In this document: in pieces, positions 7,104 through 25,733 of the stretch | How positions within the stretch are numbered: position 1 is the stretch's first letter | How the letters are laid out: every line of letters starts with the position of its first letter | Source of the DNA: Cupriavidus necator | GTDB taxonomy: Bacteria > Pseudomonadota > Gammaproteobacteria > Burkholderiales > Burkholderiaceae | DNA: 32,000 bases | NCBI RefSeq assembly: GCF_016127575.1 | Contig: NZ_CP066018.1 | Coordinates: 3,270,001 to 3,302,000 of the forward strand | Direction: 5' to 3' | Translations under genes and position numbers: made by a program | Notes under the pieces: model-generated | What the model saw: only the letters and a program-made list of their open reading frames with translations | Database searches by the model: none | Told to the model about the DNA's origin: nothing

Positions 7104-7183
7104 GGGAGGGGGAAATGCCTGAGTGAAAAACAGAAAAAGCGCGGAGAAAGCGGGCAACCGCCGGGTCTGGTGCGCTGGCCGGC

Positions 7184-7189: not shown

Positions 7190-7387
7190 GCGTTTCCGGT
7201 GCGCCGCACGCCGTGGCGGTGCAAAACAGCCCGGCAACGTGCACCGCCAATGTGCCTTCGTGCCTCGACGATTCAGGGATTACCCTTGGTCTTGCAAAAC
7301 TCTATTTTCTTGTTCGTGCGTTGCGTGTAAATTCATTTTCACGAAAACGGCGTGCATCAGACGACGTCCAGACCAACCGCTTCCACC

Positions 7388-8350: not shown

Positions 8351-8358
8351 GCATCCAC

Positions 8359-9333
8359 ATGCAACCAGCAGTCATTGCCATCCACGGCGGCGCCGGCACC
8401 ATCACCCGCGCGGCGATGGACGCCGCCCGCGAACGCGAATACATCGAAGCGCTGCAACACGTGCTGCAAGCCGGCCAGCGCATCCTGGCCGAGGGCGGCA
8501 GCGCGCTCGATGCGGTCACCGAGGCCGTGCGCCTGCTGGAAGAATGCCCGCTGTTCAACGCCGGCAAGGGCGCCGTGCTGACCCATGCCGGCACCTATGA
8601 GCTCGATGCCGCGGTGATGGACGGCGCCACGCTGGCAGCCGGCGCGGTGGCCTGCGTCACGCGCCTGCGCAACCCGGTGCTGGCCGCGCGCGCGGTGCTG
8701 GACCACAGCGAGCACGTGCTTTTTGCCGGCGCCGGCGCCGAGGCCTTTGCGCAGTCGCAGGGGCTGGAACTGGTGGGCCCGGACTACTACTTCACGCAGG
8801 CCCGCCATGACCAGTGGCAGCGTGCGCTTGGCAACGCCGGCATGGCGCTGCTGGATCACGATGGCGCTGCGCTGGTGGCGCAAGGCAAGACGCAGGCGAG
8901 CGACCCGATCGATCCGGACAGCAAGTTCGGTACCGTCGGCGCGGTGGCCTGCGACGGCCGCGGCAACCTGGCTGCGGCCACCTCCACCGGCGGCGTGACC
9001 AACAAGCAGGTGGGGCGCGTGGGCGATACCCCGGTGATCGGCGCGGGCTGCTATGCGGACGACGTGGCGGCAGTGTCTGCCACCGGCACCGGCGAGATGT
9101 TTATCCGCACCGTGGCCGCGCACGACGTGGCTGCCCAGATGCGCTATGCGGGCCTGTCGCTCGAGGAATCAGCGCGGCGCGTGGTGATGGAGAAGCTGCC
9201 GGCCATCAACGGCCGCGGCGGCCTGATCGCGGTGGACCGCGCCGGCAACGTCACGCTGCCTTTCAACACCGAAGGCATGTACCGCGGTTTCGCCCGGGTG
9301 GGCGAGGCCGTGAACGTGTCGATCTACGGCTGA
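8359..9333 (+). CDS. iaaA: Isoaspartyl (beta-aspartyl) peptidase / L-asparaginase; Ntn-hydrolase, plant-type asparaginase family.
   Basis: [15 protein letters not shown]...[10 protein letters not shown]...[22 protein letters not shown] (autoprocessing G|T site)...[12 protein letters not shown]. It sits directly upstream of gsiABCD-like genes, as in E. coli. The track ORF 7123-9333 is a 5' over-extension in the same frame. Confidence 0.92.
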
Positions 9334-9374
9334 GCGCCATCCCCCTGCATCACCCGGCAATACAAGGAGTTCCA

Positions 9375-11273
<1,899 letters not shown>

Positions 11274-11311
11274 AGTCCTGGAAGTCACCAAGTTACCAAG
11301 GAGAATCGACG

Positions 11312-12868
11312 ATGTCTGCACGTATGGTTTCGCCCCGATGGGTGGCCGGCGCCTTTGCCGCCGGCACGCTGGGCATGCTGGTTTCGGCCCCGGCTTTCGC
11401 CGCCAAGGATGCCGTGATGGCGGTGAGTTCGACCTTCACCTCGCTGGATCCGTACGATTCGAACGACACGCTGTCGCAGGCGGTTGGGAAGAGCTTCTAC
11501 CAGGGCCTGTTCGGCCTGGACAAGGATATGAAGCTGGTCAATGTGCTGGCAGACAGCTACGACGTCAGCAAGGACGGCCTGACGTATACGATCAAGCTGA
11601 AGAAGGGTATCAAGTTCCACGACGGCACCACCTTCGACGCCGGCGCCGTCAAGGCCAACCTGGACCGCGTCACCAACCCGGCCAACAAGCTCAAGCGCTA
11701 CACGCTGTTCAACCGTGTCGCCAAGACCGACGTGGTCGATGCCAATACCGTCAAGGTCACGCTGAAGGAGCCGTTCTCGCCGTTCATCAACGTGCTGGCG
11801 CACCCGTCGGCGGTGATGATCTCGCCGGCCGCGCTGCAGAAGTACGGCAAGGAAATCGCCTTCCACCCGGTCGGCACGGGCCCCTTCGAATTTGTCGAAT
11901 GGAAGCAGCCCGACCACCTGAAGGGCAAGAAATTCGCGGGCTTCTGGAAGACCGGCTACCCGAAAATCGACACTATCACCTGGAAGCCGGTGGTCGACAA
12001 CAACACCCGCGCCGCGATCATGCAGACCGGCGAGGCTGACTTTGCCTTCAGCATCCCGTTCGAGCAGGCCGCGGTGCTGAAGAACAGCGCCAAGGTGGAT
12101 CTGATCGCCTCGCCGTCGATCATCCAGCGCTACCTGTCGCTGAACACCATGGTCAAGCCGTTCAACGACCCCAAGGTGCGCCAGGCCATCAACTATGCCA
12201 TCAACAAGGACGCGCTGGCCAAGGTCGCCTTCGCTGGCTACGCGGTGCCGGCCGAAGGCGTGGTGCCGCCTGGCGTGGACTATGCCGAGAAGCTGGGCCC
12301 GTGGCCGTATGACCCGGCCAAGGCGCGCGCGCTGCTGAAGGAAGCCGGCTATCCGAACGGCTTCGAGACCACGCTGTGGTCGGCCTACAACCATACCACC
12401 GCGCAGAAGGTGATCCAGTTCGTGCAGCAGCAGCTGCAGCAGGTCGGCATCAAGGCCTCGGTGCAGGCGCTTGAGGCCGGCCAGCGCGTGGAGAAGGTCG
12501 AGAGCGTGCCCAAGCCGGAAGATGCCGGCGTGCGCATCTACTACGTGGGCTGGTCGTCGTCGACCGGTGAATCGGACTGGGCGCTGCGTCCGCTGCTGGC
12601 TTCGGAGTCGATGCCGCCCAAGCTGCTGAATACCGCGTACTACAAGAACGACCAGGTCGACGCCGATATCGCCGGCGCGCTGCGCACCACCGATCGTGGC
12701 GAAAAGGCGCGCCTGTACAAGGACGCCCAGGAACGCATCTGGAAGGATGCGCCGTGGGCCTTCCTGGTGACCGAGAAGGTGCTGTTCGCGCGCAGCAAGC
12801 GGCTGAGCGGCGCCTATGTGATGCCGGATGGATCGTTCAATTTCGAAGAGATCGATATCAAGCAGTAA
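11312..12868 (+). CDS. gsiB: Periplasmic family-5 substrate-binding protein (GsiB-like).
   Basis: Signal peptide [30 protein letters not shown]|AKD. Body typical of the SBP_bac_5 family (KFHDGTPF-like [20 protein letters not shown]). AAGGAG lies 8 nt upstream of the ATG. Confidence 0.9.
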
Positions 12869-12919
12869 TGGGTGAGGCGAGGGCCGGGACTTCGTGGAAG
12901 CTCCTGCCCTGTCCCCCGG

Positions 12920-12945
12920 CCCCTCTCCCGCAAGCGGGAGAGGGG
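12920..12945. repeat. REP-like perfect palindrome (12-bp arms, 2-nt centre) in the gsiB-gsiC spacer.
   Basis: CCCCTCTCCCGC aa GCGGGAGAGGGG, read directly from the sequence. It is flanked by an imperfect second hairpin (GGGCCGGGAC...GTCCCCCGGCCC, about 12883-12923). The sequence type resembles the GC-rich extragenic palindromes common in beta-proteobacteria. Confidence 0.6.
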
Positions 12946-13089
12946 AGCAAACAACGGGTGCCGGCTGTAATCCCATCCAAAGAGCAGTAAGCAGTAAAGC
13001 AGTACGCCGAGGTGGCCGCCTTGCCCGCGTCGCGGGGTCGCAGGCGGGCGGCCTGCGGCCTCTGCTGCTGCATTTCTTTCTGGTGTGTC

Positions 13090-14010
13090 ATGCTGAATTA
13101 CTTCCTCAAACGTGTGCTGGGCGTGATCCCCACGCTGCTGATCGTGGCAGTGCTGGTGTTCCTGTTCGTCCACCTGCTGCCGGGCGATCCGGCGCGGCTG
13201 GCGGCGGGCCCGGAGGCCGATTCCGCCACCGTCGAACTGGTGCGCAAGGACCTGGGCCTGGACCGGCCGATGCACGAGCAGTTCGTCAACTTCTTTTCCA
13301 ATGCGGTCCGCGGCGAGTTCGGCCATTCGCTGCGCACCAAGCGCCCGGTCAGCGAGGAGATCGGCGACCGCTTCATGCCCACGCTGCTGCTGACGGTGGC
13401 GTCGATGGCCTGGGCGGTGGTGTTCGGCATGGCGATCGGCATCGGCTCGGCCGTATGGCGCAACCGCTGGCCGGACCGGTTCGGCATGACGCTGGCGGTG
13501 TCGGGCATTTCGTTCCCGGCCTTTGCGCTGGGCATGCTGCTGATGGAAGTGTTCTCGGTGCAGCTGGGCTGGCTGCCGTCGATCGGCGCCGACAGCTGGA
13601 AGCACTACGTGTTGCCGTCGATCACGCTGGGCGCGGCGGTGGCCGCGGTGATGGCGCGCTTTACGCGGGCCTCGTTCGTCGAGGTGCTGCAAGAAGATTT
13701 CATCCGCACCGCCCGTGCCAAGGGCGTGCGCGAGACGCTGGTGGTGGCCAAGCACGGCCTGCGCAACGCCATGATCCCGGTGGTGACGATGATGGGCCTG
13801 CAGTTCGGCTTCCTGCTGGGCGGCTCGATCGTGGTGGAAAAGGTGTTCAACTGGCCGGGCCTGGGGCGCCTGCTGGTCGATGCCGTCGAGATGCGCGACT
13901 ACCCGGTGATCCAGGCCGAGGTGCTGCTGTTCTCGCTCGAATTCATCCTGATCAACCTGGTGGTGGACATGCTCTACACCGTGATCAACCCAACCATCCG
14001 CTACAAGTGA
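13090..14010 (+). CDS. gsiC: ABC importer permease (GsiC/DppB-like).
   Basis: [35 protein letters not shown] is the canonical N-terminus of this permease family. The EAA-type loop is [20 protein letters not shown]. At 306 aa it matches the length I recall for E. coli GsiC. Confidence 0.9.
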
Positions 14011-14017
14011 GGCCGGC

Positions 14018-14932
14018 ATGACTGAGCTTTCCACGCCCGCCGCAGCGCAAGCGGCACCCGCCACCGCCTCCGTGCCGGAGGCCGTGCGCACGCCCTGGAC
14101 CGAGTTCTGGCGCAAATTCCGCAAGCAGCACCTGGCGCTGGGCGCCGGTGCCTTCGTGCTGGTGCTGGTGGTGATTGCCATCGTGGCGCCGCAGATCGTG
14201 CCGTACGACCCGGAGAACTACTTCGACTACGACGCGCTCAACGCCGGCCCGTCGGCCGCGCACTGGATGGGCGTCGATTCGCTCGGACGCGACATCTTCA
14301 GCCGCATCCTGGCCGGCGCGCGCATCTCGCTGGCGGCGGGTTTCCTGTCGGTGATCATCGGCGCGCTGATCGGCACCGTGCTGGGCCTGCTGGCGGGCTA
14401 CTACGAAGGCTGGTGGGACCGCATCGTGATGCGCATTTCCGACGTGCTCTTCGCCTTCCCGGGCATCCTGCTGGCGATCGGCATCGTGGCCATCCTCGGC
14501 AACGGCATGACCAACGTGATCTTCGCCGTGGCCATCTTCAGCATCCCGGCGTTTGCACGGCTGGTGCGGGGCAATACGCTTATGCTCAAGCGGTTGACCT
14601 ATATCGAGGCGGCGCGCAGCATCGGCGCGTCGGACTGGACCATCCTGATGCGGCATATCCTGCCGGGCACGGTGTCGTCGATCGTGGTGTATTTCTCGAT
14701 GCGTATCGGCACCTCGATCATCACCGCGGCCAGCCTGTCGTTCCTGGGGCTGGGCGCGCAGCCGCCCACGCCGGAATGGGGCGCGATGCTCAACGAAGCC
14801 CGCGCCGACATGGTGACCGCGCCGCACGTGGCGATTTTCCCCAGCCTGGCGATCTTCCTGACCGTGCTGGCCTTCAACCTGCTGGGCGACGGCCTGCGCG
14901 ACGCGCTTGACCCCAAGATCGACCGCCGTTGA
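14018..14932 (+). CDS. gsiD: ABC importer permease (GsiD/DppC-like).
   Basis: [24 protein letters not shown]...[22 protein letters not shown]...[12 protein letters not shown]. It begins 7 nt after gsiC. Confidence 0.9.
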
Positions 14933-14948
14933 ACCTGAGCCGCTGAAC

Positions 14949-15995
14949 ATGACCGCATCGACAACGGGCGTGCCGCGTGTCGGCAGCCTGCCGGCAGGTC
15001 CGCTGGACAGCATCGCCGACGTCGCCGGCGTGACCGTCGGCCATTGCACGCTGGCGGACGGCGCCGTGCAGACCGGCGTCACCGTGATCCGTCCGCATGG
15101 CGGCGATCCGTACCGCGACAAGGTGCCCGCCGCGGCCACGGTGCTCAACGGCTTTGGCAAGAGCATCGGGCTGGTGCAGGTGGACGAACTGGGCGTGCTG
15201 GAAACCCCGCTGGCGCTGACCAATACCTTTTCGGTCGGCGCGGTCGCGCAGGCGCAGATCCGTGCGGCGGTGGCGGCCAATCCGGAGATCGGCCGCGCGC
15301 TGCCGACCGTCAATGCGCTGGTGTTCGAGTGCAATGACGGCTACCTGAACGATATCCAGCGCATGGCGGTGGAGGGCAGCCACTATGAGGCGGCCCTGGC
15401 CGGTGCCGGTCATGACGTCGCGCAGGGAGCGGTCGGTGCCGGACGCGGCATGTCGGCATTCGGCGTCAAGGGTGGTATCGGCACTGCTTCACGCCTGGCC
15501 GGTGGCTATCGCGTGGGCGCGCTGGTGCTGGCCAATTTCGGCACGCCGGAATCGTTGACCGTGGCCGGCCGGCTGGCCGGTCCGGAACTGGTGCAGCGCC
15601 TGGCGCAGCCCGACACCGCGGCGCAACCGGAAAAGGGATCGATCATCATGATCCTCGCCACCGACGCCCCGCTGGATGCGCGCCAGCTGCGCCGGCTGTC
15701 GCTGCGCGCCGGCGCCGGGCTGGCGCGTACTGGCTCGGTGTTCGGGCATGGCTCGGGCGATATCGCAGTCGCGTTCTCGAGCGCGTATACCGTGCCGCAC
15801 GACACCGCCCGGCCGATGCCGGCCGTCGCCATGCTGCATGAAACCCATCTCGACCCGCTGTTCCGCGCCGCGGCCGACAGCGTCGAGCAAGCCATCCTGC
15901 ATGCCCTGTGGCATGCCGCACCGGTGCAGGGCCGCGACGGCCACGGCCGGCGCGCACTGCTGGACGTGATGCCCGAACTGGGCCAAACCGCCTGA
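14949..15995 (+). CDS. P1/S58-family peptidase (DmpA/BapA-like L-aminopeptidase / beta-aminopeptidase).
   Basis: SIADVAGVTVGHCTL...TGVTVI...NALVFECNDGYLNDI...GAVGAGRGMSAFGVKGGIGTAS...SIIMILATDAPLD...HGSGDIAVAFS. This is the characteristic S58 Ntn-type layout. It begins 16 nt after gsiD. Confidence 0.85.
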   Translation: MTASTTGVPRVGSLPAGPLDSIADVAGVTVGHCTLADGAVQTGVTVIRPHGGDPYRDKVPAAATVLNGFGKSIGLVQVDELGVLETPLALTNTFSVGAVAQAQIRAAVAANPEIGRALPTVNALVFECNDGYLNDIQRMAVEGSHYEAALAGAGHDVAQGAVGAGRGMSAFGVKGGIGTASRLAGGYRVGALVLANFGTPESLTVAGRLAGPELVQRLAQPDTAAQPEKGSIIMILATDAPLDARQLRRLSLRAGAGLARTGSVFGHGSGDIAVAFSSAYTVPHDTARPMPAVAMLHETHLDPLFRAAADSVEQAILHALWHAAPVQGRDGHGRRALLDVMPELGQTA

Positions 15996-16813
15996 TGAAG
16001 ATCCTTGTTTCCACCGATATCGAAGGCGTGGCTGGCGTCTTCCACGCCGAACAGACGCGCCCCGGCAACGGCGAATACGAACGCGCCCGCGCCTGGATGA
16101 CCGGCGAAGCCAATGCCGCGGTCGATGGTGCCTTTGCCGGCGGCGCGACTGAAGTACTGGTCAACGATTCGCACGGCGGCTTCCGCAACCTGCTGCCGGA
16201 CCAGTTCGATCCGCGCGCGCGGGTGGTGCTTGGCAAGCCGCGCTACCTTGGCATGATGGCCGGCGTCGAGGCCGGAGTCGACGGCGTGCTGATGATCGGC
16301 TACCACGGCCGCGCCCAGAGCCGCGGCGTGCTGGCGCACACCATCAACAGCGGCGCGTTTGCGCGGGTCTGGCTCAACGGCAAGGAACTGGGCGAGGCGG
16401 GCCTGTACGCCGCGCTGGCCGGCGAGTTCGGCGCTCCGGTGCTGATGGCCAGCGGCGACGATGTCTTCGTGCAGGAAACCCATGCGCTGATGCCGTGGGT
16501 GCGCTATGTCGAGACCAAGTCAGCGGACGGCTTCGGCAGCGGCACCTCGCTGTCGCCGGCGGCGGCGCGCGAGGCCATTGCCGCGGCGGCCGCAACCGCG
16601 GTGCGCGAACGCGCGCAGGCGCAATGCCTGCGCATCGCCGCGCCGGTGACTTGCACCCTGCAGACCCTGACGCCCGCGCACGCGGACCTGTTCTGCCAGT
16701 GGCCGGCGCTGGAGCGCCGCGACGGCGTGACGCTGTCCTTCCAGGCCGATTCGGTCCAGGCGGCGGTGCGCATGCTGAACTGCCTGTCGGCGATGTCGTT
16801 CATGCTGAAGTAG
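15995..16813 (+). CDS. dppA: M55-family D-aminopeptidase (DppA-like).
   Basis: MKILVSTDIEGVAGV...VLVNDSHGGFRNL...MIGYHGRAQSRGVLAHT. These are the M55 metal-ligand regions. The start overlaps the previous stop (TGATG). Confidence 0.85.
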   Translation: MKILVSTDIEGVAGVFHAEQTRPGNGEYERARAWMTGEANAAVDGAFAGGATEVLVNDSHGGFRNLLPDQFDPRARVVLGKPRYLGMMAGVEAGVDGVLMIGYHGRAQSRGVLAHTINSGAFARVWLNGKELGEAGLYAALAGEFGAPVLMASGDDVFVQETHALMPWVRYVETKSADGFGSGTSLSPAAAREAIAAAAATAVRERAQAQCLRIAAPVTCTLQTLTPAHADLFCQWPALERRDGVTLSFQADSVQAAVRMLNCLSAMSFMLK

Positions 16814-16892
16814 GGCAGGGCAGATTCGCCGGGACGAGCGCGCAGATCGGCGACAATGGCGGGTCTAGCAATTCAGGTATGAGCCGCAACGC

Positions 16893-17657
16893 ATGACCCA
16901 GGCACACGACGGGGGCTGGATCCCCGTGCGCAAGGACTTCGTCGACCCCGCCACGCGCTGCCATGCGCGGGGCGCGAGCCGCCGCCACCATGGCTTTCCG
17001 ACCGGGCAGGCTTATATCCTGCGCGACGCCGCAGGGCATGAATACCCCTTTGGCGACGACTGCGCGCGTGCCGCGGTGCCGCATCCGGGCCTGCTGCTGC
17101 AGGTGCCGGACTACACCGAGCGCGATGTGGTGCCGCGCACGGCCTTGCCCGAGGTGGCGCCCCCGGCCCGCCGGCGCGATCCCGCCCAGGCGCAGGCCGC
17201 CGAGCGCGCCGCCGCGATCCGCTACCTGGTGCTGCGCATGGAGAAGGTGGCCGCGGTGCCGCGCGTGCAGCCGACAGTGCGTTTCCCGGCGCTTGAGGGC
17301 GTCTACGAGCAGTACCAGCGCACTTGCGACATCGGCATGGCGCAAGTGCGCCGCATCCTGGCGATCGAGCGCAGCCCGTCCACCCCGCCGCGGCTGCGCG
17401 CCACCAACCTGCTGGACGTCTATACCGCGCATATCAAGCTGGAATGGCTGATCGCGGGGTCCAACAGCGTCGACAACATCCGCTTCCTGCGCAGTCTGCA
17501 CGACTGGCTGGCCCGTCACCTGGTGCTGACCGCCGGCCAGCTGGCCGCGGCCGGGATCGAGATGCATCCGCAGGCGTTCACCGCGCCCGGCATCTGGGGG
17601 CCGGGGACAGAGCCCGCGCCGGCATCGCCCGGGTACGCATCCGGATCGCTGTTTTAG
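16893..17657 (+). CDS. Hypothetical protein, 254 aa; no family recognised.
   Basis: Strong GC3 codon bias typical of the host. Clean ATG start 80 nt after dppA. The antisense ORF 16800-17567 has an Arg/Ala/Gly-rich artefact composition. No motif I can name. Confidence 0.6.
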   Translation: MTQAHDGGWIPVRKDFVDPATRCHARGASRRHHGFPTGQAYILRDAAGHEYPFGDDCARAAVPHPGLLLQVPDYTERDVVPRTALPEVAPPARRRDPAQAQAAERAAAIRYLVLRMEKVAAVPRVQPTVRFPALEGVYEQYQRTCDIGMAQVRRILAIERSPSTPPRLRATNLLDVYTAHIKLEWLIAGSNSVDNIRFLRSLHDWLARHLVLTAGQLAAAGIEMHPQAFTAPGIWGPGTEPAPASPGYASGSLF

Positions 17658-17720
17658 CTGCGGGTGGCAAGACCTGCGGATTTGGCGTCTAATGCCTGCA
17701 TCGCATCAGCCGGTCACGCC

Positions 17721-18791
17721 ATGAGCCATTTTTCTCGCAGCTACGCCGAAGCCCGCCAGAAGTTCCTTGACGCCGCGCGCACGGCCGGGGCCGCGCTGGC
17801 CCAGTTCCCGCACCCCACCAAGCGCGGCAGTGCCGGCGAGGACCTCGCCATCGACGTGGCGCTGGCCGGTCCGGCCGAGGCCCGCCGCTGCCTGATGGTG
17901 ACCTCGGGCACGCACGGCGCCGAAGGCTTTGCCGGATCCGGCGCGCAGGTGACAATGCTGCACGACGCCGCGCTGCTTGCCGATTGCGCCGCCGCCGACA
18001 CCAGCCTGCTGCTGGTGCATGCGATCAATCCCTACGGTTTTTCCCACCTGCGCCGGGTCAACGAGGACAACGTCGACCTGAACCGCAATTTCATGGACTT
18101 CACCCAGCCGCTGCCGTACAACGAGGCCTATGCCGAGATCGCGCCGCTGCTGGTGCCGGCGCAATGGCCGCCGTCCGACACCGACCAGGCGCAACTGATG
18201 AAGGCCGTTGCCGAGCGCGGCATGCCGTGGTACCAGGCCGCGGTCAGCCGCGGCCAGTACCAGGACCCGGGCGGCATGTTCTACGGCGGCGACAAGGCTG
18301 CCTGGAGCAACTACACGCTGTGCCGCATCCTGGCGCGCTTCGGCGCCGGGCGCGAGGCGCTGCGCTGGATCGACGTCCATACCGGACTTGGCCCCTGGGG
18401 CTACGGCGAGCCCATCCACATGGGCCCGGACACGCCGGAATCGCTCACGCGCACGCGCGCGATCTGGGGCGCGCGGGTAACCTCGATCTACGATGGCTCG
18501 TCGACCTCGGCCAACCTCACCGGCCTGGCCTGGCACGCGGTGCTGCAGACCCTGCCCACCATCGACTACGCCGGCATCGCGCTTGAGTTCGGCACGCTGC
18601 CGGTGGGCGAGGTGCTGGACGCGCTGCGCGGCGACCACTGGCTGCACCAGCACCCGGAAGCCGACGAAAACCAGCGCGCGCTGGTCCGCCAGGCGATGTG
18701 GCGTGCCTTCTATGGCGATACCGACGACTGGCGCGAGGGCGTGGTGGCGCAGGTGACCGACGCAGTGCGGGACACCATTGCCTCGGCCTAG
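17721..18791 (+). CDS. DUF2817 / M14-like zinc carboxypeptidase-fold protein.
   Basis: MSHFSRSYAEARQKFL...MVTSGTHGAEGFAGSG (HxxE zinc motif)...LVHAINPYGFSHLRRVNEDNVDLNRNF...IDVHTGLG. I prefer the internal ATG at 17721 to the track start 17664. Confidence 0.78.
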   Translation: MSHFSRSYAEARQKFLDAARTAGAALAQFPHPTKRGSAGEDLAIDVALAGPAEARRCLMVTSGTHGAEGFAGSGAQVTMLHDAALLADCAAADTSLLLVHAINPYGFSHLRRVNEDNVDLNRNFMDFTQPLPYNEAYAEIAPLLVPAQWPPSDTDQAQLMKAVAERGMPWYQAAVSRGQYQDPGGMFYGGDKAAWSNYTLCRILARFGAGREALRWIDVHTGLGPWGYGEPIHMGPDTPESLTRTRAIWGARVTSIYDGSSTSANLTGLAWHAVLQTLPTIDYAGIALEFGTLPVGEVLDALRGDHWLHQHPEADENQRALVRQAMWRAFYGDTDDWREGVVAQVTDAVRDTIASA

Positions 18792-18833
18792 CCGGCTCTG
18801 GCCGCAAGCGCCTTCTGGTAATGTCTCGACGTT

Positions 18834-18845
18834 GGCGGTAGAGTG
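18834..18845 (+). promoter_or_regulatory. ops-like element (GGCGGTAGAGTG) in the leader of the lipid operon.
   Basis: Exact match to the RfaH-recruiting ops consensus GGCGGTAGnnTG. It is on the non-template (sense) strand, 181 nt upstream of the 19026 start codon, in an otherwise non-coding 234-nt gap. Confidence 0.3.
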
Positions 18846-19025
18846 CTGAGCCAGGCACTGCCGCCATGCCTTGGCCGGCACGAGCAGCAGCCGCGCCGCG
18901 GTCAGAAAATTACCAGAAACAAGACGGAAGAGGTCGGGGCAGGCCCGGGCGCATGATCCTGCGCGTCGCCGCGGCCTGGCGCACGGCGTCGCTTCCGGCA
19001 TCAGCTCGGCAGGGAGGCCGGTGCG

Positions 19026-19652
19026 ATGACCCTCTATGAACTGAAGCCCAGGTTCCAGGCCCGGTTGCGCCCCATGGTGCAGGACCTGGCGCAGCGCGGC
19101 GTGACTGCCAACCAGGTGACGCTGGCCGCCGCGGCCGGCTCCCTGGCGGTGGGGGTGCTGGCCACGCTGGGCATGCTGGTGGCCGAGACCCCGGCGCTGT
19201 TCCTGCTGTTCCCTCTATGGTTGTTCCTGCGCATGGCGCTCAACGCCGTCGACGGCATGCTGGCGCGCGAGCACGGCCAGCAGAGCGTGCTGGGTGTCTA
19301 CCTGAACGAGCTTGGCGACATTGCCTCGGACCTGGCGCTGATCCTGCCGCTGGCCGCGCTGCCGGACTTCAGCCTGGGCCAGGTCGGCACCTTCGCGCTG
19401 CTGGCGGTGATCGTCGAGGCCACCGGGCTGATCGGCCCGCTGGCCGGGGCCAGCCGGCGCTACGACGGCCCGCTGGGCAAGAGCGACCGCGCCTTCGCGG
19501 TCGGCGCGATCGCGCTGTGGGCAGGTGTTGGCCTGGGCTTTGGCGCGGCCGCCAGCTGGCTGTGGCTGGTGCTGTCGCTGCTGTCGCTGTTTACGATTGC
19601 CAACCGGGTGCGCCGCGGTGTCGCCGAGGCCCAGTCCCGCACAGCGGAGTAG
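19026..19652 (+). CDS. ynbA: CDP-alcohol phosphatidyltransferase-family membrane protein (YnbA-like).
   Basis: MTLYELKPRFQ...LNAVDGMLAREHGQQSVLGVYLNELGDIASD (DGxxAR...GDxxxD variant of the CDP-alcohol motif)...GKSDRAF. Multiple hydrophobic spans. It is the first gene of the coupled operon. Confidence 0.85.
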   Translation: MTLYELKPRFQARLRPMVQDLAQRGVTANQVTLAAAAGSLAVGVLATLGMLVAETPALFLLFPLWLFLRMALNAVDGMLAREHGQQSVLGVYLNELGDIASDLALILPLAALPDFSLGQVGTFALLAVIVEATGLIGPLAGASRRYDGPLGKSDRAFAVGAIALWAGVGLGFGAAASWLWLVLSLLSLFTIANRVRRGVAEAQSRTAE

Positions 19653-19656
19653 CGAG

Positions 19657-21426
19657 ATGGACCGACCGTCGACGCGCCAGCCGCAAGAGCGGCAATTCGA
19701 GACCCACGACCGCCAGACGCTGTTCTATCGGCACTGGCCGGCGGTGGAGGGCCCGGCGCGCGGCGCCGTGGTGTTGTTCCATCGCGGCCATGAGCATTCC
19801 GGCCGGGTCGCCCACCTGGCCGACGAACTGAACCTGCCCGGCTACGAGATCTTTGCCTGGGATGCGCGCGGCCACGGCCGTTCGCCCGGCGAGCGCGGCT
19901 ACAGCCCCAGCCTGGCGGACTCGGTGCGCGATATCCAGACCTTCACCACCCATATCGCCGAGGTCCACGGCATCCCGCTGGAACGCACCGCGGTGATCGC
20001 GCAGAGCGTGGGCGCGGTGCTGGCCGCCACCTGGGTGCACGACTACGCGCCGCCGATCCGCGCGCTGGTGCTGGCCTCGCCCGCGTTCAAGGTCAAGCTC
20101 TACGTGCCCTTTGCGCGGCCGGGGCTGAAGCTGATGCAGCGCCTGCGCGGCAAGTTTTTCGTCAACAGCTACGTCAAGGCCAAGTTCCTCACGCACGATC
20201 CCGAGCGCATCGCCAGCTACGACAGCGATCCGCTGATCACGCGCCCGATCGCGGTCAATATCCTGCTGGACCTGTACGACACGGCGGAGCGCATCGTCGC
20301 CGATGCCGCGGCGATCACGGTGCCGACGCAGCTGCTGATCTCCGGCGCCGACTGGGTCGTGCATCGCGGGCCGCAGGACCGCTTCTATGAGCGCCTGGGT
20401 GCGCGCACCAAGGAGCGCATCGTGCTGGACGGCTTCTATCACGACACGCTCGGTGAGCGCGACCGCAAGCTGGCGGTCGATGCCGCGCGCCGCTTTATCC
20501 TGCGCGAATTCGACATGCCGTCGGCGCCGCGCTCGCTGCTCGATGCCGACCAGATCGGCCCGTTCCGCGAGGAATCCGACCGCCTGGCGTCGGCGCCTGT
20601 CGGGCTGGCCGCCTGGTACTGGCGCGCGGCGCGGGCCAACCTGAAGCTGGGCGGAATACTGTCGGACGGGGTGCGGCTGGGCCATGAGACCGGCTTCGAC
20701 TCGGGCTCGACGCTCGACTATGTTTACCGCAACGCCCCCTCGGGCCGCGGCAAGCTGGGCCGGCTGGCCGACCAGCAGTACCTGGACGCGATCGGCTGGC
20801 GCGGCATCCGCCAGCGCAAGGTCCACGCCGAGGCCCTGATCGCCGAGGCCGTGCGGCGGCTGCGCGCGGGCGGCATGCCGGTGCGGATCGTCGACATCGC
20901 CGCCGGGCACGGGCGCTATGTGCTTGAGGCGCTGGGCGCGCTGGATGGCGGCGCCGCGGCGGTCGAGTCGATCCTGCTGCGCGACTACAGCCCGCTGAAC
21001 GTCGAGCAGGGCCGCGCCCTGATCGCCGCCAAGGACCTCGCGGACGTGGCCCGCTTCGAGCAGGGCGATGCCTTCGACGGCGACAGCCTGGCGGCGCTGG
21101 CACCGGCGCCGACACTGGCGGTGGTTTCCGGCCTGTACGAACTGTTTCCCGACAACGCGATGGTGCGGCGCTCGCTCGAGGGCCTGGCGCGCGCGGTGCC
21201 GCCCGGCGGCTATCTGGTCTACACCGGCCAGCCCTGGCATCCGCAGCTGGAATTCATCGCGCGCGCGCTCACCAGCCACCGCGCCGGCGCCGCCTGGGTG
21301 ATGCGCCGCCGCTCGCAGGCCGAGATGGACGAACTGGTGCGGGCCGCTGGCTTTGACAAGGTGACCCAGCGTATCGACCCGTGGGGCATCTTCACCGTCA
21401 GCCTGGCGCGCAGGCGCGGCGCATGA
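19657..21426 (+). CDS. ynbC: Bifunctional alpha/beta-hydrolase (lysophospholipase-like) :: class I SAM-dependent methyltransferase (YnbC-like).
   Basis: N-terminal half: VVLFHRGHEHSGR (oxyanion region), IAQSVGA (nucleophile elbow variant), GFYHD (His). C-terminal half: RIVDIAAGHGRYVLEAL (motif I), LLRDYS, VVSGLYELF. The ATG at 19657 lies 4 nt after the ynbA-like stop. Confidence 0.85.
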   Translation: MDRPSTRQPQERQFETHDRQTLFYRHWPAVEGPARGAVVLFHRGHEHSGRVAHLADELNLPGYEIFAWDARGHGRSPGERGYSPSLADSVRDIQTFTTHIAEVHGIPLERTAVIAQSVGAVLAATWVHDYAPPIRALVLASPAFKVKLYVPFARPGLKLMQRLRGKFFVNSYVKAKFLTHDPERIASYDSDPLITRPIAVNILLDLYDTAERIVADAAAITVPTQLLISGADWVVHRGPQDRFYERLGARTKERIVLDGFYHDTLGERDRKLAVDAARRFILREFDMPSAPRSLLDADQIGPFREESDRLASAPVGLAAWYWRAARANLKLGGILSDGVRLGHETGFDSGSTLDYVYRNAPSGRGKLGRLADQQYLDAIGWRGIRQRKVHAEALIAEAVRRLRAGGMPVRIVDIAAGHGRYVLEALGALDGGAAAVESILLRDYSPLNVEQGRALIAAKDLADVARFEQGDAFDGDSLAALAPAPTLAVVSGLYELFPDNAMVRRSLEGLARAVPPGGYLVYTGQPWHPQLEFIARALTSHRAGAAWVMRRRSQAEMDELVRAAGFDKVTQRIDPWGIFTVSLARRRGA

Positions 21427-22808
21427 GCACGGTGCCGACGGAGGTTGGCGCCGGGGCGCATTCGCAGCTGCCTGCAGGCAACCGGCCCTGGGGGCTGGCC
21501 TGCCTGCTGCTGGCGCTGGCCGGCGCGTTCTTTTTCTCCAGCTACGGCTTTGCCAACTGGCTGGCGAGCCAGCGCGCCAACGTTCCGGCGGTCTATTTCG
21601 AATGGGAGCAGGGGATCCCGTTCCTGCCGTGGACCATCGTGCCGTACTGGTCGATCGACCTGCTGTACGGCATCTCCTTCTTCCTGTGGCGCACGCGCGC
21701 GGCGCTGCTCACGCACGTCAGGCGGTTGGTACTGGCGCAGCTGGTGTCGGTGGCGTGCTTTATCGCCTTCCCGCTGCGCTTCAGCTTTGCCCGGCCCGAG
21801 GCCGACGGCCTGCCGGGCCAGCTGTTCACGCTGCTGGGCGGTTTCGACCTGCCGTTCAACCAGGCGCCGTCGCTGCATATCAGCCTGCTGGTGATCCTGT
21901 GGGTCGCCTTTGCGGCGCACCTGCGCGGCGGCTGGCGCTGGCTGCTGCACGGCTGGTTTGCGCTGATCGGGGTCTCGGTGCTGACCACCTGGCAGCACCA
22001 CCTGATCGATGTGCCCACCGGCGCGCTGGTGGGCTGGCTGTGCGTTTACCTGTTCCCGATGCAACGGCCCGCTGCAGGCGCGCCGGATGCGCGCACGCGC
22101 CAGCTGTCGCGCCGCTACACCGTGGGCGCGCTGGTGGGGTTGCTGTGCGCGGTGCTGGCGGTGGGTGCGTCGGTGACGCTGGCGTTGCTGCTGTTGTGGG
22201 CCGCGCTGGCGCTGGCCTGCGTCGCCCGGATCTACGCGCTGGCCGCGCCGGCGTGGTTCCAGAAGGACGGCGATGGGATGATGGCCCCGGCCGCGCGCTG
22301 GGTGCTGGCGCCGTACCTGCTGGGCGCCTTCCTCAATTCGCGCTGGTGGACGCGGCGCGCGCCGCAGCCCAGTGCCATCGCGGACGGCATCTGGGTTGGC
22401 CGCTTCCCGACCCGCGCCGAACTGCGCGCGATCGGGGCGGACGCCGTCCTCGACCTGACCGCCGAACTGTCGCGCGCAGCCACCGACCCGGCGCTTGCGT
22501 ATCGTTGCGTGCCGGTACTGGACCTGACCGTGCCGACGCCGGAGCAGTTGGACAAGGCCGTGGCTCAACTCGACGCCTGGCAGCGGCAGGGCCGCCGCGT
22601 GCTGGTCAGCTGCGCGCTCGGCTATTCGCGCAGCGCGCTGGTTGCCGCCGCATGGCTGGCGCGCCAGCAGGGACTGCGCGACGCCGGCGCTGCGCTGGCG
22701 TTGCTGCGCGAGCATCGCCCGGCGGTGGTGCTCGGGCGCGAACATGCTGAGGCGCTGCAACGCTGCCTGGACCGTCCCGCCATGCCGGAGCCCGATGATG
22801 GCCGCTGA
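21423..22808 (+). CDS. ynbD: Membrane PAP2_C / sphingomyelin-synthase-like phosphotransferase domain fused to a cytoplasmic dual-specificity (CX5R) phosphatase domain (YnbD-like).
   Basis: N-terminal membrane domain with PSLHISL and TWQHHLIDVPTGALVGW (compare the SMS/IPC-synthase SGH and HYTxDV motifs). C-terminal VLVSCALGYSRS is a CX5R(S) P-loop (22611-22631). The start ATG overlaps the previous stop (ATGA). Confidence 0.82.
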   Translation: MSTVPTEVGAGAHSQLPAGNRPWGLACLLLALAGAFFFSSYGFANWLASQRANVPAVYFEWEQGIPFLPWTIVPYWSIDLLYGISFFLWRTRAALLTHVRRLVLAQLVSVACFIAFPLRFSFARPEADGLPGQLFTLLGGFDLPFNQAPSLHISLLVILWVAFAAHLRGGWRWLLHGWFALIGVSVLTTWQHHLIDVPTGALVGWLCVYLFPMQRPAAGAPDARTRQLSRRYTVGALVGLLCAVLAVGASVTLALLLLWAALALACVARIYALAAPAWFQKDGDGMMAPAARWVLAPYLLGAFLNSRWWTRRAPQPSAIADGIWVGRFPTRAELRAIGADAVLDLTAELSRAATDPALAYRCVPVLDLTVPTPEQLDKAVAQLDAWQRQGRRVLVSCALGYSRSALVAAAWLARQQGLRDAGAALALLREHRPAVVLGREHAEALQRCLDRPAMPEPDDGR

Positions 22809-23229
22809 GTTCACGCAAGGCACTGATGCCTGGATCGCGCACGCCGTCGCCGGGGCGCTGTCGGGCGCCGTGTGGATCGGCGCGGCCGGGCTGGCTTTCG
22901 GCGTGGCCACGGTATGGCTGGGGGTGGCCACGCCGGTCCCGCGCGTGCTGGCGGCCGCGTCGCTGCTGCTGGCGCTGCCCCAGGTCTGGCTGCTGCTGCG
23001 CGTTGCCATCGACCGCCGGCTGTTCGATGCGCTCGCGGCCGGGCGGCAGGACCAGCCCGACCTGGCCGGATTGGACGCCGCGCTGCTCGAACTGGGCTGG
23101 ATGCCGGCGCAGCGCGCCGGCCGTCCGTTGCCGGACCGCGCCCGCGGTGCGCTGCGGCTGGTGCGCGCCAGCGCCGCGCTGACTGTGTGCCAGCTGGCGC
23201 TGGCCTTGCTGACCGTGATCCTGAGGTAA
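22795..23229 (+). CDS. Small hydrophobic protein (144 aa, 2-3 predicted membrane spans); unknown function.
   Basis: High GC3 content. Hydrophobic stretches AHAVAGALSGAVWIGAAGLAFGVATVWLGV and LAAASLLLALPQVWLLL, with a C-terminal LTVCQLALALLTVIL. It overlaps the upstream gene by 14 nt and ends 6 nt before the acyltransferase gene, so it fits the operon exactly. Confidence 0.6.
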   Translation: MMAAEFTQGTDAWIAHAVAGALSGAVWIGAAGLAFGVATVWLGVATPVPRVLAAASLLLALPQVWLLLRVAIDRRLFDALAAGRQDQPDLAGLDAALLELGWMPAQRAGRPLPDRARGALRLVRASAALTVCQLALALLTVILR

Positions 23230-23235
23230 CCAACC

Positions 23236-23862
23236 ATGTGGCTTGCCCGCGCGACCGCGCGCGCCATCATCGTCTTCGCCCGGCTGCTGACCGGCATGCG
23301 CGCCAACTGGCAGGGCTGCATCCCCGCCGCGGTGCAGCGCGTCTACTTTGCCAACCACAGCAGCCACGGCGACTTCGTGCTGATCTGGGGCTGCCTGCCG
23401 CCCGACCTGCGCACAGTCACGCGCCCGGTGGCCGGTGCCGACTACTGGGATCGCTCGTCGCTGCGGCGCTTTATCGGCCGCGACGTATTCCACGCGCTGC
23501 TGATCGACCGCACCCGCAGCGAACCAGGCAGCGACCCGGTGGCGCTGATGCACGGCGCGCTGGCATCCGGCGACTCGCTGATCCTGTTTCCCGAAGGCAC
23601 GCGCAATACCACCGACGCGCGCCTGCTGCCGTTCAAGAGCGGCATCTACCACCTGGCGCGGGCCTGCCCCGGGGTGGAGTTCGTGCCGGTGTGGATCGAC
23701 AACCTCAACCGCGTGATGCCCAAGGGCGAAGTCGTGCCGGTGCCGCTGCTGTGCACCGTCACCTTTGGGCAGCCGGTGCTGCTGGCCGCCGAGGACAGCA
23801 AGGAAGCCTTCCTTGCGCGCTGTCGCGACGGCCTGCTCGCGCTTGCCCCGGAGCTGGAATGA
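23236..23862 (+). CDS. Lysophospholipid (1-acyl-sn-glycerol-3-phosphate-type) acyltransferase, PlsC family.
   Basis: NHSSHGD (HX4D catalytic block, 23353-23373), FIGRD, LILFPEGTRN (block III), and the PVWID block. Confidence 0.87.
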   Translation: MWLARATARAIIVFARLLTGMRANWQGCIPAAVQRVYFANHSSHGDFVLIWGCLPPDLRTVTRPVAGADYWDRSSLRRFIGRDVFHALLIDRTRSEPGSDPVALMHGALASGDSLILFPEGTRNTTDARLLPFKSGIYHLARACPGVEFVPVWIDNLNRVMPKGEVVPVPLLCTVTFGQPVLLAAEDSKEAFLARCRDGLLALAPELE

Positions 23863-24821
23863 CCGCCATGCCCACTTTGCACTGGAGCCCCGAGACCTGG
23901 CTGCTGTTCGGCGGACTGTTCGGCGTGCTGCTGCTGGCCTCCACCGTGACCGCGCTGCTGCGCTGGCGGGTGGCGGGCGGCGGCCAGCACGCGGTGATCG
24001 ACAACCTGGCGCAGCGCGTCTGGGCCTGGTGGTGGATGATCGGCATCATGGGCGTGGCCTTTGCGCTGGGCCGCACCGCGGTGATCGTGCTGTTCTACCT
24101 GCTTTCGTTCTTCGCGCTGCGCGAGTTCGTCACCATCATCACCACGCGGCGCGGCGACCATCACGCCATCGTCGCCGCCTTTTTCGTGTTCCTGCCGCTG
24201 CAGTACGTGCTGGTCTATATCGGCTGGTACGGCATGTTCTCGATCCTGATCCCGGTCTATGCCTTCCTGATCCTGCCGATCCTGGCGGCGCTGTCGTCCG
24301 AGACCACGCGCTTCCTGGAGCGCTGCGCCGGAGTGCAGTGGGCGGTGATGGTGTGCGTGTTCTGCATCTCGCACGTGCCGGCGCTGCTGACGCTGCCGAT
24401 CCCGGGCTTTGAAGGCCGCAACCTGCTGCTGATCGCCTTCCTGGTGATCGTGGTGCAGGGCAGCGACGTGCTGCAGTATGTGTGGGGCAAGCTGTGCGGC
24501 AAGCGCAAGATCGCGCCGCTGCTGTCGCCGTCCAAGACCGTCGAGGGCTTTGTCGGCGGCGTGGCCAGTGCCACCGCGCTGGGCGCGGCGCTGTGGTGGA
24601 TCACGCCGTTCTCGCCGTGGCAGGCCGGCGCGATTGCGCTGGTGATTGCGCTGATGGGTTTCCTCGGCGGGCTGGTGATGTCGGCGATCAAGCGCGACCG
24701 CGGCATCAAGGACTGGGGCCATATGATCCAGGGCCACGGCGGCATGCTGGACCGGCTGGACTCAGTGGTGTTCGCCGCGCCGGTGTTCTTCCATATCACC
24801 CGCTACTGGTGGGTGCCCTGA
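23859..24821 (+). CDS. ynbB: Phosphatidate cytidylyltransferase paralogue (CDP-diacylglycerol synthase family, YnbB-like).
   Basis: Polytopic membrane protein ending in the CdsA signature region SPSKTVEGFVGG...SAIKRDRGIKDWGHMIQGHGGMLDRLDS. ATGA overlap with the acyltransferase stop. The track ORF 22872-24821 is a 5' over-extension. Confidence 0.88.
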   Translation: MTAMPTLHWSPETWLLFGGLFGVLLLASTVTALLRWRVAGGGQHAVIDNLAQRVWAWWWMIGIMGVAFALGRTAVIVLFYLLSFFALREFVTIITTRRGDHHAIVAAFFVFLPLQYVLVYIGWYGMFSILIPVYAFLILPILAALSSETTRFLERCAGVQWAVMVCVFCISHVPALLTLPIPGFEGRNLLLIAFLVIVVQGSDVLQYVWGKLCGKRKIAPLLSPSKTVEGFVGGVASATALGAALWWITPFSPWQAGAIALVIALMGFLGGLVMSAIKRDRGIKDWGHMIQGHGGMLDRLDSVVFAAPVFFHITRYWWVP

Positions 24822-24833
24822 GCACCCCGGCCC

Positions 24834-25733
24834 TCACAGCTCCATCTCTTCGCACCACGCCACCACTGCATCGCGGAAGTCCTGGCAGATCGGCGACAGG
24901 TAGCCATCGGCGCGCCACAGCACGGCCAGCTCATGCTGCCACGACATGCCTGGCGCCTCGATCGCGGCCAGCCCCTGGCCCTCGGCCTGGTGCAGCATGC
25001 GCGGCGGCATGATGCCGAGCAGGTCCGAGTGCCGCAGCAGCTCGCCGAAGGCCACCGGCGACGCCGTGCTTTCCACTGCCACGCGCGGCGGCGGCAGCCC
25101 GACCGAGGTAAACCGTTCCTCCAGCCACTGGCGCAGGTAGAGCGAACTCGCCGGCACCACCCAGCGCTCGCCGCTCAGGTCGGCCAGCGTGCGGAAGCCC
25201 TCGCGGCGCGGATGGCCGGTGCGGGACACGATCTGCATGGTCAGCGGACCGAGCGGCAGCCAGGCAATGTCCGGCGGCAGGCTGGTCGGGCGCGCGCCCA
25301 GGATCAGGTCGGCCTCGCCGTTCTGCAGCATCGCCATCAGGCGCGCGCTCAGGTGGGTCTCGATCGAGAACGTGGCCAGCGGCCGGCTCAGGAAGAAGCG
25401 GGCCAGCAGCGGCGACAGCAGCGACGGCAGCAGGTAGGGGATGGCGCCCAGGCGCACCGTGCCCGCGCGCGCCGCGCGCTGCTCGGCCAGTTCGTTGCGC
25501 ATGTCGCCCGCCGCCAGCGCGATCCGGCGCGCATGGGCGGCCAGGGTGCGGCCCACGCTGGTCGGCACCAGCCCGCGCGGGGTGCGCTCGAACAAGGGCA
25601 TGCCGGCTTCGCCTTCCAGCCGCGCCAGCGTCTTGGACAGGCCGGACTGGGTCATGCCGAGGGTGTCGGCGGCGCGGTGCAGGTTGCCTTGCTCGATGAC
25701 AACCAGGAAGGCTTCAAGATCCTCGAATCGCAT
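24834..25733 (-). CDS. LysR-family transcriptional regulator.
   Basis: MRFEDLEAFLVVIEQGNLHRAADTLGMTQSGLSKTLARLEGEAGMPLFERTPRGLVPT (the LysR wHTH), followed by a LysR_substrate-like C-terminal domain. Confidence 0.92.
   Translation of the reverse strand: MRFEDLEAFLVVIEQGNLHRAADTLGMTQSGLSKTLARLEGEAGMPLFERTPRGLVPTSVGRTLAAHARRIALAAGDMRNELAEQRAARAGTVRLGAIPYLLPSLLSPLLARFFLSRPLATFSIETHLSARLMAMLQNGEADLILGARPTSLPPDIAWLPLGPLTMQIVSRTGHPRREGFRTLADLSGERWVVPASSLYLRQWLEERFTSVGLPPPRVAVESTASPVAFGELLRHSDLLGIMPPRMLHQAEGQGLAAIEAPGMSWQHELAVLWRADGYLSPICQDFRDAVVAWCEEMEL

Follow-up and report, generated by a model that had tools for sequence, protein, structure and literature searches.

The six-gene operon at positions 19026-24821 of a 32,000-nucleotide (nt) stretch of Cupriavidus necator DNA is an ordinary member of a widespread, uncharacterized operon family, and the ynbABCD operon of E. 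coli looks like a reduced version of it. The stretch, which we refer to as the window, comprises positions 3,270,001 to 3,302,000 of contig NZ_CP066018.1 (NCBI RefSeq assembly GCF_016127575.1), and nothing in it is unusual for the family. The reading that we favor, and that we hold only tentatively, is that the operon is the full six-gene version of ynbABCD and that its products form a pathway, self-contained and non-essential, by which a minor, non-canonical glycerophospholipid is made or processed.

The operon and its E. coli counterpart

The six open reading frames (ORFs) are intact, begin with ATG and lie on the + strand. The first, g1 (19026-19652; 208 amino acids, aa), encodes a multi-spanning, YnbA-type cytidine diphosphate (CDP)-alcohol phosphatidyltransferase. 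It is followed by g2 (19657-21426; 589 aa), a YnbC-type fusion of an alpha/beta hydrolase to an S-adenosylmethionine (SAM) methyltransferase that is predicted to be soluble; g3 (21423-22808; 461 aa), a YnbD-type fusion of a PAP2-superfamily membrane domain to a Cys-phosphatase; g4 (22795-23229; 144 aa), a membrane protein without a Pfam model; g5 (23236-23862; 208 aa), a PlsC/LPLAT-type acyltransferase; and g6 (23859-24821; 320 aa), a multi-spanning, YnbB-type paralog of CDP-diacylglycerol (CDP-DAG) synthase. From g1 to g6, the junctions are +4, -4 (ATGA), -14, +6 and -4 (ATGA) nt. The original prediction, which was made from the letters of the window, had described six tightly packed genes, and its coordinates and all five junctions were reproduced exactly. 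The window is approximately 70% G+C, and the composition of the operon is that of its surroundings. The g3 protein is 100% identical to a protein annotated by NCBI in C. necator.

When the encoded proteins were compared with those of E. coli K-12 by BLASTP, four of them matched products of the ynb operon over approximately their full length: g1 matched YnbA (46% identity), g2 matched YnbC (61%), g3 matched YnbD (42%), and g6 matched YnbB (37%). These matches bear out the correspondence to ynbA, ynbC, ynbD and ynbB that had been proposed. The E. coli operon, ynbA-ynbB-ynbC-ynbD (b1408-b1411), thus encodes four full-length orthologs whose domain architectures, the two fusions included, are those of the window proteins, and it is likewise tightly packed on a single strand. 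The two operons differ in content, in that the YnbD-type gene of the window is followed by an additional gene, g4, and its YnbB-type gene is preceded by another, g5. They also differ in gene order, which is A-C-D-g4-g5-B in the window and A-B-C-D in E. coli.

The protein families present (CdsA, CDP-alcohol transferase, PlsC and phosphatase) could in principle make phosphatidylglycerol, and the locus might then be one for housekeeping synthesis of CDP-DAG and phosphatidylglycerol. We consider this unlikely, and indeed extremely improbable. Only the C-terminal 119 aa of g6 align with E. coli CdsA (46% identity), compared with 302 aa for YnbB, and g6 scores 85 bits against the NCBIfam CdsA equivalog NF008635, for which the cut-off is 385. 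A match to CdsA that is restricted to the C-terminal half is the pattern published for YnbB (PMC7018664). We observed no match of g1 to PgsA at E < 0.01, and E. coli has separate cdsA and pgsA genes. Since g6 matches only half of CdsA, g1 lacks a PgsA match, and the NCBIfam scores are far below their cut-offs, the locus appears to be a paralogous set and not the housekeeping cdsA/pgsA, in agreement with the original prediction. Published genetics also speaks against a housekeeping role, in that ynbB is non-essential and its knockout has no phenotype (PMC7018664), and over-expression of YnbD does not rescue strains deficient in phosphatidylglycerophosphate (PGP) phosphatase (pgpABC; PMC7413402). 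Strains deficient in undecaprenyl pyrophosphate (C55-PP) phosphatase are not complemented by it either (PMC7413402).

Distribution of the six-gene form

For the gene-neighborhood survey, which took one genome per species and was anchored on YnbC, we found at least 540 species with a relative, kept the best 80 loci, and mapped the six window proteins and a profile of g4 onto them. All six genes are present in 67 of the 80 loci, which come from several proteobacterial classes, and the six genes are thus co-conserved, as the original prediction had presumed. The collinear arrangement g1-g2-g3-g4-g5-g6, which is that of the window, is the majority one and was found in 45 loci (Cupriavidus, Pseudomonas, Rhodocyclaceae, Reyranella, Labrys, Variovorax, Xenophilus, Polaromonas, Marinagarivorans and Steroidobacteraceae). 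In a further 21 loci, from Burkholderia and Trinickia, g6 and g5 form a divergent pair upstream of g1-g2-g3-g4. A single locus from Sedimenticolaceae (L076) has the order g1-g6-g5-g2-g3-g4, and the other 13 loci are mostly cut by contig ends. The four-gene form was found in E. coli alone.

The Sedimenticolaceae locus has the E. coli gene order plus g5 and g4, which suggests that E. coli has lost these two genes and that its operon is a reduced form of the six-gene one. The acyltransferase and the small membrane protein had originally been regarded as additions to the E. coli set. This view did not hold up, since most loci carry all six genes and the E. coli set appears to be a reduced one; g4 and g5 are therefore core components of the family.

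Among 18 diverse loci, we found no further conserved flanking gene, be it for an alcohol supplier, a glycosyltransferase, a flippase or a regulator; the recurring gene clusters consist of the six genes plus shadow ORFs. Independent gene calls for one metagenome contig and a Shinella plasmid gave the same gene set, and in these an unannotated protein of 136-145 aa is encoded next after the YnbD-type gene. The YnbC-type proteins of Cupriavidus and Pseudomonas share approximately 68% identity. The operon is annotated alike in hundreds of genomes, and it is not in itself novel.

Some individual loci depart from these arrangements. On the Shinella plasmid (L086, 6271-12078), the YnbA-type gene is divergent from g2-g3-g4-g5-g6. 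The module is also found on large rhizobial plasmids or chromids, and in Cupriavidus nantongensis it is located on chromosome 2. A plasmid of Rhizobium leguminosarum CB782 (L087, 8132-9738) carries a g5-g6-type pair alone, without the other four genes. Given this lone pair and the relocated pair of Burkholderia, g5-g6 can be considered a separable sub-module. Lysobacter antibioticus has an eight-gene module (L084, 2759-10649) in which two genes are inserted between g4 and g5. The first encodes a membrane protein of 478 aa that has a TIGR04222 domain and a C-terminal tail rich in Gly, Cys and Ser, and the second encodes another YnbA paralog of 217 aa with the motif N-x2-D-G-x2-A-R-x8-G-x3-S-D-x2-D.

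The YnbA-type transferase

The original prediction had assigned Pfam domains to the proteins of the operon, and the outcome of profile searches was mixed. The assignments of PF12146, PF12147, PF00782, PF01553 and PF01148 were confirmed, PF01066 is below threshold in g1, and PF14360 is missing from g3. The score of g1 against PF01066 is 19.5 bits, compared with a Pfam cut-off of 22 and a score of 39.2 bits for E. coli YnbA. When a YnbA-family profile was searched against the PDB, it gave a full-length match to the phosphatidylinositol-phosphate (PIP) synthase of Mycobacterium tuberculosis (6h53, E = 9e-10). The homology of g1 to CDP-alcohol phosphatidyltransferases is clear from this comparison of sequences, and the family to which it belongs is divergent.

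The canonical signature of these enzymes, D-x2-D-G-x2-A-R-x8-G-x3-D-x3-D, is found in E. coli PgsA. In g1, the signature reads N73-x2-D76-G-x2-A-R-x8-G-x3-N94-x3-D98, with Asn in place of the first and third Asp. This Asn variant is present in all 79 full-length family sequences examined, including those of the window and of E. coli YnbA; one further YnbA-family ORF is fragmentary, does not reach the motif, and is outside the 79. In the solved PIP synthase, the residues at the replaced positions, D68 and D89, coordinate metal ions, and D93 is the presumed catalytic base (PMC6506517). The last Asp of the signature, which is equivalent to D93, is retained in the YnbA family.

Residues of the acceptor site were also compared. 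Arg94 of PIP synthase is crucial for the binding of inositol phosphate (PMC6506517). In the profile alignment, its position corresponds to Ile99 of g1 and is occupied by Ile or Val across the YnbA family, and neither Tyr133 nor Arg137 of PIP synthase has an equivalent in YnbA. Arg155 and Arg195 belong to a conserved phosphate-binding site of PIP synthase. Arg195 aligns with the invariant Arg194 of g1, and the segment that contains Arg152 and Arg155 corresponds to K152-S-D-R155, which is also invariant, with a shift of one position in the alignment. Because Arg94 has given way to Ile or Val while the equivalent of Arg195 has been kept, we infer that the acceptor of g1 is probably anionic and is something other than inositol phosphate.

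These observations bear on whether the operon could be a bacterial phosphatidylinositol pathway, with g1 as a PIP synthase, the phosphatase domain of g3 as a PIP phosphatase, and the PAP2 domain of g3 as a transferase of phosphoinositol. In NCBIfam and the PDB, g1 comes closest to archaetidylinositol-phosphate synthases and PIP synthases, the top fold match of the g3 N-terminal domain is inositol phosphorylceramide (IPC) synthase (see below), and the logic parallels that of BT_1522-BT_1526 of Bacteroides thetaiotaomicron (PMC9246714). The latter genes, which encode a PIP synthase, a PIP phosphatase, an IPC-synthase-like PAP2-superfamily transferase and a small integral membrane protein, provide the closest characterized pathway logic to that of the window module (PMC9246714). 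However, unlike the Bacteroides system, the window module has no inositol-phosphate synthase, its phosphatase is a Cys-based enzyme and not of the PgpA type, g4 has no GtrA match, and g1 lacks the Arg94 that binds inositol phosphate. The window module also goes beyond that system in having a CdsA paralog, an LPLAT and a hydrolase-methyltransferase fusion. The NCBIfam scores of g1 are far below the equivalog cut-offs (58.9 vs 180 for archaetidylinositol-phosphate synthase, and 27.6 vs 170 for PIPSynth), and a gene for inositol-phosphate synthase was absent from every locus examined. To our knowledge, E. coli likewise lacks an inositol-phosphate synthase. We consider a phosphatidylinositol pathway to be very unlikely.

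The YnbD-type protein and its probable partner g4

The g3 protein consists of a PAP2-superfamily membrane domain (aa ~23-210) with six helices and the motifs R124-P125, P149-S-L-H152 and S185-x6-H192-x3-D196; two further transmembrane helices (aa 223-273); and a dual-specificity-type Cys-phosphatase (DSP) domain (aa ~317-450) with the motif C397-x5-R403. The score of g3 against PF00782 is 53.7 bits (cut-off 33.5), and C397-A-L-G-Y-S-R403 and D367 are invariant across the family. In an AlphaFold2 model of g3 with a predicted local distance difference test score (pLDDT) of 85.6, the DSP domain superposes best on DUSP23/VHZ (Foldseek TM-score 0.82). The other top fold match of this domain is archaeal Tk-PTP, and PTPMT1 is found at rank 47 (TM-score 0.74).

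Residues 229-451 of g3 (22107-22775) match the N-terminal 235 residues of NCBIfam PRK12361 with a score of 133 bits. PRK12361 is a 546-residue model, and its C-terminal half, which we take to be a diacylglycerol-kinase-like domain, does not align to g3. If this is so, the DSP unit with its membrane anchor would constitute a lipid-phosphate module that can be reused.

The membrane domain of g3 had been described as a sphingomyelin-synthase-like PAP2_C domain. The Pfam part of this description failed, in that PF14360 (PAP2_C) was absent from g3 even at E <= 10 and only sub-threshold matches to PAP2 and PAP2_3 were obtained. The score against PF01569 (PAP2) is 21 bits (cut-off 27.2), and the score against PF14378 (PAP2_3) is 16.5 bits, compared with 22.3 bits for E. 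coli YnbD, both of which are below the cut-off. Nor does g3 have the motifs of PAP2 phosphatases, which are K-x6-R-P (C1), P-S-G-H (C2) and S-R-x5-H-x3-D (C3). In g3, C1 retains only R124-P125, C2 is P-S-L-H152, and C3 is S185-V-x5-H192-x3-D196. The basic residues of the monoester phosphatases are thus missing, the Lys of C1 having been lost and the Arg of C3 replaced by Val. Judging from these motifs, the membrane domain belongs to the PAP2 superfamily but is not a canonical monoester phosphatase.

The fold part of the description fared somewhat better. Foldseek searches with full-length g3 were swamped by DSP matches, and we therefore modeled the N-terminal domain separately (pLDDT 82.3). 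In Foldseek, this model was matched best by IPC synthase (9vj4) and by SMSr (8ijq), at a probability of 1.0, E about 0.035 and TM-scores of 0.43-0.49, and these rank ahead of LpxE and PgpB. The model thus lends weak support to a sphingomyelin/IPC-synthase-like fold. Like the sphingomyelin/IPC synthase branch, the g3 domain keeps the His-His-Asp catalytic residues and is without the basic residues of monoester phosphatases. Unlike those synthases, it is fused to two further transmembrane helices and a DSP domain, and its TM-scores are below 0.5.

Loop charges were compared across 26 homologs of g3. The PAP2 active-site loops lie on the side that is low in Lys and Arg, and the N-terminus, the even-numbered loops and the DSP domain lie on the side that is rich in them. 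This suggests that the PAP2 site is probably periplasmic and the Cys-phosphatase cytoplasmic. Since the two catalytic domains of YnbD are probably on opposite faces of the membrane, the pathway logic would differ from that proposed originally.

The g4 protein has about three hydrophobic or transmembrane segments and an Arg-rich loop, and it has no match in Pfam or NCBIfam. One search gave 47 homologs, all of them in Cupriavidus. A profile search of 1.84 billion cluster representatives revealed 625 relatives, nearly all of which are about 140-150 aa long. Within the survey, g4 was found in 70 of the 80 loci, and its position is always directly after the YnbD-type gene, including in those loci in which g5-g6 has been relocated. 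This constant position after the YnbD-type gene argues that g4 is a membrane partner of YnbD. We had considered a GtrA-like identity for g4 and rejected it for want of a Pfam match.

The YnbB-type synthase, the acyltransferase and the hydrolase-methyltransferase

The catalytic motifs of g2, g5 and g6 have been kept. The g6 protein scores 227 bits against PF01148, which is above threshold, and its translation contains the CdsA signature S-x-I-K-R-x4-K-D-...-H-G-G-x-L-D-R-x-D, which reads SAIKRDRGIKDWGHMIQGHGGMLDRLD. E. coli YnbB makes CDP-DAG in vitro without sustaining bulk phospholipid synthesis (PMC7018664). It can also restore MPIase under CdsA depletion, and CDP-DAG is converted to N-acetylglucosamine (GlcNAc)-pyrophosphate (PP)-DAG in membranes (PMC7018664, PMC11413397). 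YnbB had been named in the original prediction as the sole member with a functional link and the operon as a whole as having no assigned product, and the literature bears out both statements: in the searchable literature, we found no paper that names a product of the six-gene cluster or of YnbA, YnbC or YnbD. As for the other members, the ynbA promoter is activated by BglJ-RcsB, and disruption of ynbC leads to raised polyphosphate.

The YnbB results raise the possibility that the operon makes a pyrophosphate-linked DAG glycolipid anchor of the MPIase type. In such a pathway, X-PP-DAG would arise from CDP-DAG and a sugar-1-phosphate through the action of g6 and g1, and diacylglycerol pyrophosphate would be recycled at the periplasmic face by the PAP2 domain of g3. 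With Asn in place of Asp, the active site of YnbA would be less negatively charged, and this could favor a phosphate as the nucleophile. Lipid pyrophosphates are common substrates of PAP2 enzymes. Moreover, the later enzymes of MPIase synthesis are not known (PMC11413397). However, no conserved gene for a glycosyltransferase or a flippase lies in or beside the module in the 18 diverse loci, and the ynbB knockout has no MPIase defect (PMC7018664). Furthermore, MPIase has its glycan in common with enterobacterial common antigen, whereas the module is widespread outside Enterobacterales, and the Cys-phosphatase and the methyltransferase would have no role. We judge an MPIase-type anchor to be quite unlikely.

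The g5 protein scores 56.5 bits against PF01553 (cut-off 23), and both motif I, N-H-S-S-H-G-D (H-x4-D), and motif III, LFPEGTR, are present in its translation; its score against the NCBIfam AGPAT domain, 38.7 bits, is below the cut-off. In Burkholderia, g5 moves with g6 as a pair. The g2 protein scores 250 bits against PF12146 and 510 bits against PF12147, both of which are above threshold. Its N-terminal alpha/beta hydrolase domain (aa 33-269) is monoacylglycerol-lipase/lysophospholipase-like with Ser117 in QSVG, and its C-terminal PF12147 SAM methyltransferase domain (aa 278-586) has VDIAAGHGRY as motif I. Q-S117-V-G, D232, H262 and VDIAAGHGRY are invariant across the YnbC-type family. Matches of g2 in the PDB are monoacylglycerol lipases and cover the hydrolase half only; for the methyltransferase half, the PDB yielded nothing better than E = 0.012 and NCBIfam yielded no family. 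No hydrophobic segment was predicted in g2.

The hydrolase of g2 is nearest to monoacylglycerol lipases and lysophospholipase L2, and g5 is an LPLAT, as would suit Lands-type remodeling or turnover of ordinary phospholipids under stress, with no new head group. Under this scheme, g2 would make lyso-lipids, g5 would re-acylate them, and g6, g1 and g3 would recycle phosphatidic acid and diacylglycerol. The g5-g6 pair that stands alone on the Rhizobium plasmid can be counted in its favor, as can the listing in 2026, without experiments, of the six-gene cluster of P. protegens as a 'membrane phospholipid remodelling/biogenesis module' (PMC13541209). What remodeling leaves unexplained is why the operon should have a Cys-phosphatase, a highly conserved methyltransferase, and a CDP-alcohol transferase that is dedicated to it, divergent, and equipped with a conserved acceptor pocket of its own; in addition, E. 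coli keeps the operon without the acyltransferase. On balance, we think remodeling an unlikely explanation of the operon.

Upstream region and neighboring genes

The intergenic region upstream of g1 (18792-19025, + strand) presumably contains the promoter and regulatory sites of the operon. Two conserved blocks are found within it at about 18813-18828 and 18832-18858, TTCTGGTAATGTCTCG and TTGGCGGTAGAGTGCTGAGCCAGGCAC, respectively. In an alignment of 13 Cupriavidus upstream regions, these blocks are kept in the C. necator/taiwanensis clade and not in the C. basilensis group, and they could be a promoter or operator. A promoter scan found no match to the sigma-70 consensus upstream of g1, the terminator-like matches of a terminator scan fall within coding sequence, and scans of the window for Rfam families and tRNAs gave no matches.

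Downstream of the operon, a gene for a LysR-family regulator (24834-25733, - strand) converges on it and ends 12 nt past the g6 stop codon. We considered this gene as an operon-linked regulator and rejected it: since a LysR gene lies near the module in only 4 of the 18 diverse loci, a regulatory link is doubtful and the proximity is probably due to chance.

On the other side, window positions 7123-18791 hold a run of peptide-utilization genes. These encode an Asparaginase_2/isoaspartyl peptidase (7123-9333), a double ABC ATPase of the oligopeptide type (8814-11273), a family-5 solute-binding protein (11270-12868), a peptidase S58 (14907-15995), a D-aminopeptidase M55 (15908-16813) and a DUF2817 protein (17664-18791). 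None of these genes is conserved beside the lipid operon in the other genera among the 18 diverse loci. Between the M55 peptidase and DUF2817 genes lies a 254-aa ORF (16893-17657, + strand) with no Pfam match, and because an ORF on the opposite strand (16800-17567) overlaps it, it is uncertain which is the real gene. Positions 1-5000 of the window have a G+C content of 56-61%, compared with 66-74% in the rest of the window, and encode a bacterial sugar transferase (1575-2264), a PylC-like ATP-grasp enzyme (2495-3724) and a class I methyltransferase (4119-4922). This region resembles the terminal part of a surface-polysaccharide cluster, one that differs in composition and was possibly acquired.

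Proposed pathway and its implications

The pathway that we tentatively propose for a minor, non-canonical glycerophospholipid would begin at the cytoplasmic face of the membrane, where g5 would acylate a lyso-lipid to give phosphatidic acid. As suggested by the in vitro activity of E. coli YnbB, g6 would then turn phosphatidic acid into CDP-DAG, providing a private pool. From this pool, g1 would move the phosphatidyl group to an anionic and probably phosphorylated alcohol, X-P, other than inositol phosphate. The cytoplasmic Cys-phosphatase of g3 would next strip the terminal phosphate, by analogy with the pairs PgsA/PTPMT1 and PIP synthase/PIP phosphatase. Finally, the periplasm-facing PAP2-superfamily domain of g3, together with g4 as its obligate small membrane partner, would transfer the phospho-head group to a second acceptor or hydrolyze the lipid. 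The hydrolase-methyltransferase g2 would modify an intermediate or by-product. The order of steps put forward in the original prediction, with methylation of the product and remodeling of acyl chains, is speculative.

The analogy invoked for the phosphatase step has its limits. PgsA and the PGP phosphatases show the same pairing of a CDP-alcohol transferase followed by a phosphatase, and mitochondrial PTPMT1 is a DSP-fold lipid phosphatase like the DSP domain of g3. However, g1 has no match to PgsA, PTPMT1 is only the 47th-ranked fold match of the DSP domain, and E. coli YnbD does not complement the loss of PGP phosphatases (PMC7413402).

In favor of a pathway for a minor glycerophospholipid are the full-length orthology to YnbA, YnbB, YnbC and YnbD, the intact and family-invariant catalytic motifs, and the co-conservation of the six genes. 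It is also consistent with the finding that the nearest solved relative of YnbA is PIP synthase, the acceptor of which is a phospho-alcohol. The YnbB-type N-terminal half of g6, the DUSP23-like fold of the DSP domain, the fold matches, missing basic residues and loop charges of g3, and the parallel to BT_1522-BT_1526 can be counted in its favor as well. Several points weigh against it. None of the family's members has been linked to an observed lipid product, and no gene that would supply X-P is found within the module. In E. coli, four of the genes are retained in the absence of g4 and g5, and the methyltransferase is left unexplained by the model. The Asn residues at two metal-binding Asp positions of g1 could mean a different chemistry or a different donor. 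As regards g3, the fold likeness to IPC synthase and SMSr is weak, PAP2_C went undetected, and the sidedness of the protein derives from the positive-inside rule and canonical PAP2 topology. Finally, we know of no ceramide pathway in these host bacteria.

The present analysis adds the six-gene core, of which the E. coli operon looks like a reduced form, the Asn-variant signature of YnbA, the fixed pairing of g3 and g4, and the likely two-faced nature of YnbD. Few of the lipid-synthesis genes predicted in E. coli still lack a known product, and the ynb genes belong to these. Because the complete six-gene module is strongly conserved in Cupriavidus, Pseudomonas and Burkholderia, these bacteria should be better hosts than E. 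coli in which to find that product, and the Asn-variant site of YnbA, the domains of YnbD on what are likely opposite faces and the fixed pairing of g4 with YnbD provide handles for mutagenesis. A more speculative idea, and one that we regard as unlikely to be correct, is that the operon makes an undescribed phospholipid, by way of private CDP-DAG, the Asn-variant transferase and the Cys-phosphatase, that would serve as a head-group donor with which the IPC-synthase-like domain decorates an envelope molecule at the periplasmic face. If true, this would constitute a new route of envelope modification in the genomes of at least 540 proteobacterial species, including the reduced form of E. coli.

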